From the NCBI GenBank assembly GCA_048938105.1, contig JBHLMN010000015.1, forward strand, positions 64,001 to 128,000: 64,000 bases of DNA, read 5' to 3'. Shown here piece after piece: positions 3,006 to 39,128 of this stretch. This stretch comes from Promethearchaeota archaeon (GTDB taxonomy: Archaea; Asgardarchaeota; Heimdallarchaeia; Hodarchaeales; Hodarchaeaceae). The first letter of the stretch is position 1. Each line of letters opens with the position of its first letter. The position numbers and the translations under genes were made by a program. Under the pieces are notes generated by a model. The model ran no database searches. It worked only from the letters and a program-made list of their open reading frames with translations, and was not told the origin of the DNA.

Positions 3006-3957
3006 TCTTGCTTCGAATCTTTCCTTGTCTTAAAGCGATTGATTCTTTGGTGAATTTCCCCTTAAATCTCTTTTGCTCAAGGAAGAGTGAAGTAACACTT
3101 GTAGCAAAAGCGATTGCGTCTAATTCATTCTTAAAGGTCAGAAAATGAGTAACAAAGGCGAAGAGGAAAATATCACCTGCTCCTGTTTCATCAAGAATTG
3201 TACCTTCTGTAAATGCAGGAACATCATAAATATGGATATCAGGATTTTTTACACCTAATATAGAGCCATTCACTCCTCGAGTAATAAGAACAGTCGTTAT
3301 TGATGTTTCTAAAACCTTAATCACGATTTCCTCAAGGTTAGTTCCCACCTCTAACAATTCTGCTTCCGCTTCTGATACTTTGAGACAATTGACATTCTTA
3401 ATGATGTTAGAATCCCACCAATTGTAGAATTTTATCTCACCTTTTTCTGTAATTTGACGGAAACATCCTTGCGGATCAAATGCTATATAAGAACAGATCT
3501 TCCGTAATGAAGAAAAGATCGTATGATCTGAAAATTCATGATAAACAGAGCCTACTAAAGCAACTGGGGGATTTCCAAACTTCCAATTGAAATCAGCCAG
3601 ATCAAACCGCTTAGGAGGATTTTTTAGTACCAAAGTTCTTTCATTCTTATCACTGGAGTACACTAAACGAAATTGAGGGCATTTGTCTTGAATCATCAGG
3701 TTTTTCGAAATTAAATTGTAATCTGGAAATTCTCTCAACAGTGAAATTATCTTAGGGCATGTATAAGCGTAAATTAATGGTGGGGCCATCCATGGGAACA
3801 TTTTTGAGAGCATCAAACCTGAAATTCCTGCAAAAGAAGGTGGCCCTCCTATTAACAGGCTGTTTTGATCCTTGATGAAAGGAGTACCCTGATGGTCATG
3901 AATCACGTTATCTAGGACCATTTGACCAAGAGCTAACGTAATTATCTTCTTTCTCAC
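2983..3957 (-). CDS. PfkB-family carbohydrate kinase
   Basis: GGPP N-terminal motif, DETGAGDIF PfkB signature. Confidence 0.85.
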   Translation of the reverse strand: MRKKIITLALGQMVLDNVIHDHQGTPFIKDQNSLLIGGPPSFAGISGLMLSKMFPWMAPPLIYAYTCPKIISLLREFPDYNLISKNLMIQDKCPQFRLVYSSDKNERTLVLKNPPKRFDLADFNWKFGNPPVALVGSVYHEFSDHTIFSSLRKICSYIAFDPQGCFRQITEKGEIKFYNWWDSNIIKNVNCLKVSEAEAELLEVGTNLEEIVIKVLETSITTVLITRGVNGSILGVKNPDIHIYDVPAFTEGTILDETGAGDIFLFAFVTHFLTFKNELDAIAFATSVTSLFLEQKRFKGKFTKESIALRQGKIRSKIIEFLTW

Positions 3958-4100
3958 AGAGATCAGCTCTATTGAATTAAGTAGGAAATACAGTAAGGTT
4001 TAAATTTTTGCTTAAGGTTAGTCTTCATATTAATAGATTGTAGTTGTATTAGTCAGAAAATTAATAGGTTTTTAACACAGGTTTCTCCGAAGGTGGAAAA

Positions 4101-4535
4101 ATGGCTTTCGCGCTTACAGTAGAACAGAAGAAGAAATTAATAAAATTATTACAAGAAATCGTTCGATATGCAGACCTAGAAGCATTAGCATTAGTAACAC
4201 GCACAGGAATGAGTGTTGCGTTTTTCTCAGAGAAAGATGCCGATCCAGATTTATTTTCCGCGTTATCCGCAGCTGTTCTATCAACTGGTGGGATGGTTGT
4301 TGACAGAATGGATCATGGGCACTTATGGGAGGTCTTAGTTCGCGGTGAAAAAGGGTATACCGTGTTAAGTTCAGCGGAAGACTTTATCTTAATAGGAGCG
4401 TCTAATGAAGCCCATTCTTTAGGATTAGCTATTCGAGTACTACGTCGTTACAGCCGGAAAATACCAGAAATATTCCGAGAAGAGGAAAAAGATATTTCTA
4501 GTCTTGTCTCTGAGCTTAAAGATCTTTTAAGTTAA
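4101..4535 (+). CDS. Roadblock/LC7 domain protein
   Basis: ALALVTRTG, SALSAAVLS, VLVRGEKGY roadblock pattern. Confidence 0.85.
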   Translation: MAFALTVEQKKKLIKLLQEIVRYADLEALALVTRTGMSVAFFSEKDADPDLFSALSAAVLSTGGMVVDRMDHGHLWEVLVRGEKGYTVLSSAEDFILIGASNEAHSLGLAIRVLRRYSRKIPEIFREEEKDISSLVSELKDLLS

Positions 4536-26949: not shown

Positions 26950-27053
26950 GCCGCTGTGGCTTAGTTGGTAGAGCGACAGACTTGTAATCTGTTGGCCGTG
27001 GGTTCAAGATATAGGATCCTGATGGATTGTATATGGAATTCCCACCAGCGGCT
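26950..27053 (+). tRNA. tRNA-Thr(UGU) with 31-nt intron in the T-loop, position 59/60 (27009-27039)
   Basis: GCCGCTG/CAGCGGC acceptor, ACAGA-CTTGTAA-TCTGT; BHB with TTCA/TGGA helix and AGA/ATT bulges; removal gives 73 nt. Confidence 0.92.
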
Positions 27054-27111: not shown

Positions 27112-27534
27112 ATGGAATCATCACAGTTAAGTACTACTTGGAAATACCTTGCTGACGGACAATGCGCTTTTAAATCAGCTGCAACGTCTCCAAAAATGCG
27201 CTGCAATCATCTTTTTACCATTACAGGAACTTGTAGATATATAGATTGCCCTCTTGTTCAACCTGAATTCTACGCATTCCAACAACAAGAAAGCTCAGTT
27301 TATTTGATTAAAAAGGATCCTAAAGCACCCCCTGTTTCGACATGGGGTTTCACCGAGTTACCTGAAGACCGTGAGAAAGCAAGAAAAGTAGTAGAAAAAG
27401 CCATCAAAAAGCTCAATGAAAACTTAAAAGTAGCTATTTGGCGGAAGTTTGAACAACAATTCGATGCTGCAGCCATAATTAAAGCCTCTCAAGAGCTCGC
27501 AGAAGAAGAAGAGGAAGAACTAGATAAAGATTGA
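27112..27534 (+). CDS. mak16: Mak16/L28e-family ribosome biogenesis protein
   Basis: W-x7-C...C-x7-TG-C-x4-CPL...YL-K...W---L pattern matches the N-terminal domain of eukaryotic Mak16; acidic tail. Confidence 0.82.
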   Translation: MESSQLSTTWKYLADGQCAFKSAATSPKMRCNHLFTITGTCRYIDCPLVQPEFYAFQQQESSVYLIKKDPKAPPVSTWGFTELPEDREKARKVVEKAIKKLNENLKVAIWRKFEQQFDAAAIIKASQELAEEEEEELDKD

Positions 27535-27556: not shown

Positions 27557-27631
27557 CAGCGGCGAAATGATGAAACCTGACAAGGATGAGCTGAGCAATG
27601 AAATCTTATAGTTACTCTGATTCGCACGTTG
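27557..27631 (+). ncRNA. Box C/D methylation guide sRNA (double guide)
   Basis: GCGAA/TTCGC terminal stem, C box ATGATGA (27567-73), D box CTGA (27617-20), guide TTATAGTTACT antisense to LSU rRNA helix 69. Confidence 0.85.
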
Positions 27632-27714
27632 TTTTGAGGATTAATGACCTCCCAAATATGGAGTTCACATAAAATTTCACCTACTTCCTTTAATTTCCCA
27701 AGAAAGTCTTTAAT

Positions 27715-28836
27715 ATGGTTTCTTTTACCAATAACTCTTTTTTAATAGATAAAAATGTTCTTTTAGTACGGTTTGGCGGCGAAATAGGGATTAAAAGTCG
27801 ACAAACTCGTCGCCGTATGGTAGAGCAGCTACGTAGGAATATTGAGAGCTTTTTAGATCAATATCCTACTTTTAAAGTCCTTGAATTTAGAGACCGTTTA
27901 CTCATTTATTTTGAATCGGATTTAAATCTCAATAAGGTATCACATCTCATTGTTACTTCAATTAGTGGTATTTCTTCAGTCAGTCCAGCATTTGTTATTG
28001 AAGCCACAGAAAAAGCTATCGTCTCTAAAGGATTAGATAGCGTAATTAATGTCATTCAACCTTGCAGTAGTTTTGCTGTTCGTGTTCGCAGAGAAGGGAA
28101 TCATCCTTTCTCTTCGATAGATATTGCGCGCATTTTAGGTGCAAAAATTTTATCAACAGAAATTGAAGGCATTAAAGTCGATCTTGAAACCCCTGATTAT
28201 CAAATTTTTCTTGATATTCGAGGTTCCTTAGCTTTTATTTTTACCGAAGTTATCAAAGGGATTGATGGAATTCCCTCTCAAACTCAAGGAACTGCAATTG
28301 CTCTGATTCGACCTAATTTCAACTCTATTTTGGCAGCTTGGTTAATGAAGAAGAGGGGAGTGAGAGTAATACCTGTATTTTTCAGAACAGGAAAATCATC
28401 AGAAGAGAAATTTCTAAATCATGTTCGATCTCAATTCAATGAAGATCCTATTATCGTGTCAATAAAAGGCCTATTAGTTTCCTTCAAAAATCATTCTTCT
28501 CTATGTTTCCTCTGTCAAGTATTTTGTGAGACCATGTGTCAGAAAGTAGCAAACGAACAGAAAATCTCTGTTATTATATCTCCAACATGTTTTAATTTTA
28601 ATAATGAAACAATGTCACTCGAAGCATTAGAATTCATTGAAGAACGTGTTCTTCCCTCAGTAATCAGGCCAATTCAGTTTGGATTCTTCGCCCGCCAGGG
28701 GATAAGAATGGATCAGTTAGACCAGATCCCTTGTTGTCCCTTCCGAGAAAAGGTTTCTATTGAAATCTTTAATGACTTTAATGATCTTGGTCTGGAGAAG
28801 GTTTTATCCAAACTCGAAGAATATTCAGTTAGTTGA
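27715..28836 (+). CDS. THUMP-domain ThiI-like protein with degenerate PP-loop
   Basis: VRFGGEIGIKS, SFAVRVRR, VDL-TPD, AAWLMKKRG; SGGxDS is replaced by RPNFNS. Confidence 0.8.
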   Translation: MVSFTNNSFLIDKNVLLVRFGGEIGIKSRQTRRRMVEQLRRNIESFLDQYPTFKVLEFRDRLLIYFESDLNLNKVSHLIVTSISGISSVSPAFVIEATEKAIVSKGLDSVINVIQPCSSFAVRVRREGNHPFSSIDIARILGAKILSTEIEGIKVDLETPDYQIFLDIRGSLAFIFTEVIKGIDGIPSQTQGTAIALIRPNFNSILAAWLMKKRGVRVIPVFFRTGKSSEEKFLNHVRSQFNEDPIIVSIKGLLVSFKNHSSLCFLCQVFCETMCQKVANEQKISVIISPTCFNFNNETMSLEALEFIEERVLPSVIRPIQFGFFARQGIRMDQLDQIPCCPFREKVSIEIFNDFNDLGLEKVLSKLEEYSVS

Positions 28837-37991: not shown

Positions 37992-39128
37992 TTAAGATTC
38001 GAAATCATCAGGGAGCCCTATCTGCTTAACAAGAATATCACTTAATTTATCGGATCGCGGCCGAGATTCGATGAGAAAGTCTTCTAGATTAGTTTCAAGT
38101 TGTTTAAGTTTTATTCTTTCATCAGGATCAAGATTTTTCTTATCAATATGATACTCAAAGTATTTACACGCTAATTGTGGACTCTTTGTCATTGCAGAGA
38201 GTTCCTCATCAGATAGGCTTCGAATTCGATATACTGTTTGATTAACTCTTGGATCAAAGATATTACTTTTAAGATGAATAATTGCCGTCAAATAACTTCG
38301 ACCCTTAGTTATTTCGTCTTCTTCCATCCAAATGTCTGACCCTAAAGCCCACATCTCATAATCAATCCCCCATATTTTTTCTGCTTGCTTTCCTTCGTTG
38401 AATTGGACTAAATAATTCCCTGCATTTCTATCTGGGTCATTCAACCAAACATCAAAAGGTAAGAGGGTGTATCCGTCATTTATTTGCCGAACAATTTGAA
38501 ATGCCTCATCTAGATCTTTGTAAGAATCTAAAAACTCGTCAAGATTGATGGTGTTTGGGATTTTTTCCAGAAGAAGGGCTAAGACTAAAGAGGGGTCACC
38601 ACGCCCACTTTTTGCGGATAAAATTTGTTCAAATTTGGCTGATGTTTCCAAAGTATAAGGTTCTCGTTCAGAATATTGATAGTATTCTTCAGCTGTCTCA
38701 CCTTCTTCATCCTCATCAAAAACGATCACATCCCCAAGAGGTAACGTCGAGGTTTGCTTGAGAGGTTGGTCTGCAATTTGTTGAGAACATACAATAATTG
38801 CTTCGGGAACATTAAGACGTAAACGACGTCCCAAACGAGAAGCTGTAAGTTCACTAAAAGTTCGCCATAAGTGCATCCTGTCACGACTATCTTCTGGAGA
38901 TTCCTTTAGATCAACCTCTAGATCTTGAACCTCCTTTAATTCAAAATCAATAATATTAGAAAAAGTTTTAAGAAGCCATTCCTTACCACTCTCGTCTTCC
39001 AAAACAGTAGCTTTTCCATGTTGTCCTGCTGCAGTCATTGTTTTCTCTGTGAGGCGAAAACGATTACGAACAGCTTTTTTATCAGAAGTATCAAAAATAA
39101 CCAGATCCCAGTCGTTCATTATTATCAA
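37992..39128 (-). CDS. HipA/PI3-PI4-kinase-like atypical kinase
   Basis: WLLK, SEL-AS-LG--L-L-VP, FDVWLNDPDRNAGNYL catalytic loop, IDYE. Confidence 0.7.
   Translation of the reverse strand: MIIMNDWDLVIFDTSDKKAVRNRFRLTEKTMTAAGQHGKATVLEDESGKEWLLKTFSNIIDFELKEVQDLEVDLKESPEDSRDRMHLWRTFSELTASRLGRRLRLNVPEAIIVCSQQIADQPLKQTSTLPLGDVIVFDEDEEGETAEEYYQYSEREPYTLETSAKFEQILSAKSGRGDPSLVLALLLEKIPNTINLDEFLDSYKDLDEAFQIVRQINDGYTLLPFDVWLNDPDRNAGNYLVQFNEGKQAEKIWGIDYEMWALGSDIWMEEDEITKGRSYLTAIIHLKSNIFDPRVNQTVYRIRSLSDEELSAMTKSPQLACKYFEYHIDKKNLDPDERIKLKQLETNLEDFLIESRPRSDKLSDILVKQIGLPDDFES

Follow-up and report, generated by a model that had tools for sequence, protein, structure and literature searches.

Guides to helices 69 and 71 in archaea and eukaryotes

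The central intersubunit bridge of the ribosome is built by helices 69 and 71 of the large-subunit rRNA, where A1913 (Escherichia coli numbering) contacts both the A-site tRNA and the decoding helix. Together with helix 68, the two helices constitute a methylation hotspot in archaea (PMC4644070). The closest described counterpart of the RNA presented here is sR91 of the crenarchaeal hyperthermophile Ignicoccus hospitalis, whose D and D′ guides are directed at A2179 and G2211, respectively (Dennis et al. 2015, BMC Genomics 16:632, PMC4644070, Additional file 1). These are alignment positions, A2178 corresponding to E. coli A1912 (Additional file 3 has an E. coli row), so that sR91 addresses E. 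coli A1913 and G1945, the same pair as the Asgard sRNA. The same work lists Thermoproteus tenax sR30 and Pyrobaculum calidifontis sR54 with the targets U2233 and G2211, the latter through the D′ guide. Both, as well as S. acidocaldarius sR125 and sR20 and Tte/Pca sR40, are double guides to two nearby domain IV sites; they have G2211 in common with the Asgard sRNA and differ from it in the partner site and hence in the target pair. The G1945 equivalent is a predicted target in three crenarchaea. A preliminary description of the Asgard locus had implied that a double guide of this kind was new, which was overstated, as sR91 had already been published with the exact target pair: the Asgard sRNA is a new example of an RNA type and a target pair that are already catalogued. 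Among the papers searched, none dealt with Asgard C/D sRNAs, and none gave modification data for this lineage.

The eukaryotic equivalents can be assigned from published numbering. Yeast Ψ2258 and Ψ2260 correspond to E. coli 1915 and 1917, and yeast Am2256, guided by snR63, lies in the helix 69 loop and contacts the A-site tRNA (PMC2794176); the resulting offset of 343 makes Am2256 the equivalent of A1913. Gm2288, guided by snR75 (PMC8307265), lies 32 nt beyond Am2256, which matches the spacing of the two sRNA targets, and a methylation pair with this spacing has been reported in human, Arabidopsis, tomato, tobacco and Ostreococcus (PMC11542601) and in Dictyostelium (PMC8817022). The assignment to Am2256 and Gm2288 made in the preliminary description thus agrees with the literature, and so does its proposal that one archaeal double guide covers the sites of two eukaryotic snoRNAs. 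The snoRNAs snR63/U46 (SNORD46) and snR75/AtU15/Dictyostelium CD14 are aimed at the same two rRNA nucleotides as the archaeal sRNA; they are two separate and longer RNAs with one guide each for these sites and work in a Snu13/Nop56/Nop58/fibrillarin snoRNP, whereas the archaeal sRNA carries both guides.

A candidate double-guide sRNA in a Hodarchaeales genome

The window, a 64-kb stretch of DNA from a Hodarchaeales genome, contains the full set of archaeal box C/D sRNA parts at positions 27557–27631 on the forward strand, within a 180-nt spacer between the end of one ORF (27534) and the start of the next (27715). The two ends of the RNA pair over 10 bp in the predicted fold, the 5′ strand of this terminal stem (27557–27566) facing a 3′ strand (27621–27631) that carries one bulged A and is also recovered by duplex folding. 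The C box AUGAUGA (27567–27573) is followed by a 12-nt D′ guide (27574–27585) and a D′ box AUGA with a degenerate first base (27586–27589). A 2-bp stem with a triloop (27590–27596) then closes the internal C′/D′ kink-turn, and the C′ box AUGAAAU, whose 3′ half is degenerate (27598–27604), leads into the 12-nt D guide (27605–27616) and the D box CUGA (27617–27620). The arrangement of the D′ AUGA, a G-C and a C-G pair, a 3-nt bulge and the GA of the C′ box has the geometry of a kink-turn, and the two spacers, C to D′ and C′ to D, are of optimal length at 12 nt each. All these parts (stem, C box, both guides, D′ AUGA and D box CTGA) were found where the preliminary description had placed them. 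As an alternative D′ box, the CTGA at 27591–27594 was considered and rejected; it varies among relatives, lies inside the closing mini-hairpin and would imply a 17-nt spacer with no gain in pairing.

The whole RNA folds no more stably than shuffled sequences (z +1.1), as expected for a guide RNA, since the guides must remain single-stranded. No bulge-helix-bulge splice motif was seen around the sRNA; one bulged nucleotide is all that interrupts its stem. When the 64 kb were scanned with a loose C/D pattern that includes a terminal stem, two matches were obtained, at the sRNA and at a weaker site on the reverse strand (38668–38719) with weak boxes and a 4-bp stem, which is probably a chance match. 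The stem of the sRNA is followed by the T-run TTTT (27632–27635), probably an archaeal terminator, and at least four T residues follow the stem in 11 of 21 homologues from the same genus.

The Asgard sRNA and sR91 are alike in the order of their guides and in the single free base next to D′. They differ in that sR91 belongs to a hyperthermophile, has guides that follow its own GC-rich 23S rRNA and joins D′ to C′ by a simple loop, whereas the Asgard sRNA comes from a sediment/mangrove host, has an internal motif closed by a 2-bp stem and a terminal stem extended to 10 bp. With the eukaryotic snoRNAs, the target sites alone are common: similarity beyond guide and box was not detected, neither the SNORD46/snR63 nor the snR75 family of Rfam matched the sRNA at E ≤ 10, and Rfam returned sub-threshold matches to generic C/D snoRNAs, one of which shares the end of the D guide and the D box only.

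The proteins for a box C/D RNP are encoded in the same genome. Contig C38 carries adjacent genes for fibrillarin (262.7 bits) and a Nop protein (Nop5, 221 bits), and the L7Ae family is represented twice. Among the other products of the genome are an almost complete actin (442 bits) and a pair of ESCRT-II EAP30 proteins.

Complementarity to 23S rRNA

In the host assembly, the 23S rRNA is represented by model positions 16–1422, which lie where contig C9 ends, and by a pair of isolated 3′ fragments on contig C8. The helix 69–71 strings are absent from this assembly, the 23S rRNA being unassembled there, and the 23S rRNAs of relatives were used instead, so that pairing was observed with relatives and is inferred for the host itself. 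The fragments on C8 (C8:27759–28068 and C8:46367–46669 (−)) lie 18 kb apart and correspond to the last 250–300 nt of the 23S rRNA (model positions 2721–2973); similar lone 3′ fragments occur in several relatives of the genus, and they could represent fragmented rRNA, pseudo-copies or assembly artefacts. A complete 23S rRNA in another genome of the genus, G001 (L004, G001:C57:307–3242), was set aside as probably foreign: its helix 69–71 strings are unlike the other genus copies, it has no significant BLAST match to the 5′ part of the host's 23S rRNA, and its contig is probably a contaminant of the G001 MAG. Metagenome contigs of three DNA runs that fall on the helix 69–71 stretch of a relative were short unitigs from mixed organisms and did not yield the host's 23S rRNA.

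Both target strings are present in the 23S rRNA of two genomes of the same genus (L011 of G005 and L014 of G016). Against these, each guide forms 11 contiguous pairs that start beside its own box and are Watson-Crick at the N+5 position. In the D′ guide the N+5 base is the C at 27581, opposite the G of CCUUG in 23S helix 71, and in the D guide it is the T at 27612, opposite the second A of a GUAAC string that lies in the loop of helix 69; in the numbering of PMC4644070, these targets are E. coli G1945 and A1913, respectively. The two nucleotides named in the preliminary description are hence upheld by the 23S rRNAs of the genus. The sites are 32 nt apart. Since complementarity to the 23S reference of the genus is found for 11-mers of the window at a rate of 8.3e-4 per position, and yet both guides match with targets 32 nt apart, the complementarity is more than chance.

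Selection on the pairing is most strongly indicated by the sequence covariation of guide and target, which was checked in eight genomes for which both the sRNA and the 23S rRNA were available (G005, G016 and six further ones). Helix 71 reads GUCAGGU, GUCAGAU, GUCGGAU or GCCGGGU, three of these strings occurring in three lineages and the fourth in two further families, and each is matched by the guide of the same genome. Likewise, the variants UAUAA, UAUGA and UGUGA of helix 69 are guide-matched, an A-to-G change in helix 69 being accompanied by a U-to-C change in the D guide. The N+5 pair is Watson-Crick in every genome checked. It has also to be asked whether the main targets are RNAs other than the 23S rRNA, such as tRNA or mRNA. 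The target of the D-guide 11-mer does occur seven more times in the genome; this is approximately the number expected by chance, and the adjacency of the two targets in the 23S rRNA, together with guides that track 23S changes in other lineages, leaves such a reading with a negligible likelihood.

Conservation within the genus

Each of the genus's 21 species-level genomes contains a homologue of the sRNA. In their alignment, which is gap-free across the guide spacers, column identity reaches 99% in the C box (six of seven columns invariant), 99–100% in the 11-nt guide cores and 100% in the D box; 10 of 11 columns of the D′ guide and 11 of 11 of the D guide are invariant. The base next to D′ drops to 43% and the outer flanks to 48–59%, so that the conserved blocks end exactly where the complementarity to rRNA ends, and the proteins encoded by the neighbouring genes are down to 44–55% identity across the genus. 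The terminal stem is retained at 6–11 bp in 21 of 21 homologues, each time from differing sequence, as established by duplex folding of each sequence separately. This procedure was used because register shifts weaken a count of pairs in fixed columns. RNAalifold on the ungapped genus alignment returned a meaningless internal fold of −0.95 kcal/mol. In the stem that closes the internal motif, the G-C pair is present in 21 of 21 genomes and the C-G pair in 19 of 21, with one A-U compensation, and 97.6% of the cells are paired.

These data bear on an alternative, namely that the locus is a set of chance motifs in an AT-rich spacer, or a hairpin that belongs to the 3′-UTR or terminator of the upstream gene and does not act as a guide. 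The position of the RNA, which starts 22 nt past the upstream stop codon and ends at a T-run, would suit such an element, and among public sequencing runs none of RNA is listed with the locus, whereas guides that are invariant across 21 species while their flanks decay would not. The covariation with the 23S rRNA extends to families in which the upstream gene is missing next to the sRNA, and a strict layout pattern is found far more often in archaea than in bacteria (about 53 against about 7 matches; see below). We therefore regard a chance or 3′-UTR origin as extremely improbable.

The internal boxes are less regular than the terminal ones. Outside UGA, D′ and C′ are degenerate: the D′ box reads NUGA in 19 of 21 genomes, and the C′ box has an invariant AUGA followed by three variable positions. 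Two genomes, G016 and G001, have a D′ box that is lost or displaced by 2 nt, and the guide is still invariant; judged from the sequence, such a displacement would redirect the arm to C1947 or inactivate it. Methylation by the D′ guide is for these reasons less certain than methylation by the D guide. The same features could be read to mean that the RNA forms a genuine C/D RNP whose main role is that of a folding chaperone for rRNA, the D guide alone directing methylation (at A1913) and the D′ arm tethering helix 71. In Pyrobaculum, about 45% of the sRNAs have two target sites no more than 100 nt apart, an arrangement that has been interpreted as chaperone action (PMC6009581). Against a mere tether, the GA dinucleotides of D′ and C′ that the kink-turn needs are kept in 19 of 21 genomes along with the closing stem, the D′ guide has the optimal 12-nt spacing and an N+5 pair that is Watson-Crick throughout, and G1945, besides being a predicted target in crenarchaea, is methylated across eukaryotes. 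Hence, we consider it unlikely that the D′ arm serves for tethering in place of methylation, and favour a double guide in which both arms direct modification.

Distribution beyond the genus

With covariance models trained first on the genus and later on a broader set, the sRNA was detected in 2 of 2 sampled genomes of a sister family, in 9 of 12 genomes of another family of the class and, across a sample of the phylum, in 58 of 150 genomes and 24 of 52 genera. A strict layout pattern, which admitted one guide order only (D on A1913 and D′ on G1945), gave 60 matches in 185,579 prokaryote genomes, of which about 53 were archaeal and about 7, presumably chance matches, bacterial. Many of the archaeal matches are in MAGs labelled Hod- or Heimdallarchaeota, the others in further Asgard archaea, Desulfurococcales, Ignisphaera and Sulfolobales; none of the 60 carries a euryarchaeal label. 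Sequences identical to the sRNA of genus members occur in public records with the labels Heimdallarchaeota or Hodarchaeota, one of them Candidatus Hodarchaeum mangrovi, which accords with a host of the Hodarchaeales type known from metagenomes of sediment or mangrove. On these sequence matches, the sRNA family spans the Asgard archaea and the Thermoproteota. As the target determines what the guides must be, and a single guide order was scanned, common descent of its members is plausible, not established.

The homologues of one family, f4 (L066–L075 and L079), have a distinct architecture. A conserved hairpin of 26–32 nt, not the 7-nt mini-hairpin, connects D′ to C′, and the C and D boxes take the relaxed forms UGAAGA and CCGA/CGGA, respectively; the longer internal stem recalls eukaryotic snoRNAs. 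In one genome of this family (G027), the 23S rRNA (L007) contains an insertion of about 880 nt (approximately positions 3541–4418) with an ORF for a LAGLIDADG homing endonuclease (Pfam E 4e-19). The insertion sits between helix 69 and helix 71 and thus between the two target sites of the sRNA, so that the splice junction of this genome is bridged by the double guide. Close to this point of the 23S rRNA, the metagenome unitigs of run X1 break as well.

Genomic neighbourhood

The ORF upstream of the sRNA (27112–27534, forward strand) encodes an L28e/Mak16-like protein, matching Pfam Ribosomal_L28e with E 1.2e-5 and 26.2 bits, which is below the curated cut-off of 33.2, and the ORF that starts downstream at 27715 encodes a ThiI/THUMP protein. 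The order aIF2-gamma, PIN, tRNA, L28e/Mak16-like, sRNA, ThiI/THUMP and AMMECR1 is the same in all 21 genomes of the genus, as is the fixed distance of about 110–125 nt between the L28e/Mak16-like ORF and the sRNA guide. From this arrangement, co-transcription of the L28e/Mak16-like gene and the sRNA is possible. In families f2 and f4 no L28e/Mak16-like gene lies beside the sRNA. Because the neighbouring genes differ outside the genus, the sRNA is an independent unit and its linkage to Mak16 is local synteny. The location behind mak16 given in the preliminary description is therefore correct for the genus (21 of 21 genomes) and does not extend beyond it, and a functional link to Mak16 was rejected.

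The tRNA of this cluster is a tRNA-Thr(UGU) at 26950–27053 on the forward strand. Its acceptor, D and anticodon arms are readable, its T-stem halves are approximately 38 nt apart, and it seems to hold an intron of about 30 nt at a non-canonical site in the T-loop; Rfam detects it with 29 bits by skipping the T arm, and it was missed by ARAGORN.

Proposed mechanism and implications

Taken from its sequence features, 27557–27631 is, with a probability that we put at about 0.88, a double-guide archaeal box C/D sRNA that directs 2′-O-methylation at the equivalents of A1913 and G1945. We hypothesize that the 3′ end of the L28e/Mak16-like transcript gives rise to it or, alternatively, that it is transcribed from its own promoter, and that transcription would probably end at the T-run. 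L7Ae is predicted to bind both the terminal C/D kink-turn and the internal C′/D′ kink-turn closed by the 2-bp stem, upon which Nop5 and fibrillarin would assemble on the L7Ae-bound kink-turns. Within such an RNP, the D guide would base-pair with the loop of helix 69 to place a 2′-O-methyl group on the A1913 equivalent, and the D′ guide with the 5′ strand of helix 71 to place one on the G1945 equivalent, 32 nt downstream. As both guides bind one short stretch of the nascent 23S rRNA, the RNP would probably also aid the folding of this intersubunit-bridge region.

More speculatively, the sRNA could descend from the common ancestor of Thermoproteota and Asgard archaea and have been split to give rise to U46/snR63 and snR75/U15, with the RNP possibly also holding two exons together while the 23S rRNA matures, given that in at least one relative a LAGLIDADG intron lies between the two targets; we regard this scenario as rather doubtful, if worth keeping in mind.

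Few known archaea are more closely related to eukaryotes than the Hodarchaeales. The host lineage and the wide conservation of the sRNA lend the finding a modest evolutionary interest. For the first maps of Asgard ribosome modification, A1913 and G1945 provide a concrete pair of sites. Hodarchaeales and crenarchaea carry a guide for precisely those two riboses that are methylated in all sampled eukaryotes, and a guide common to these archaea supports the view that both modifications were inherited from archaea and are not eukaryotic inventions.
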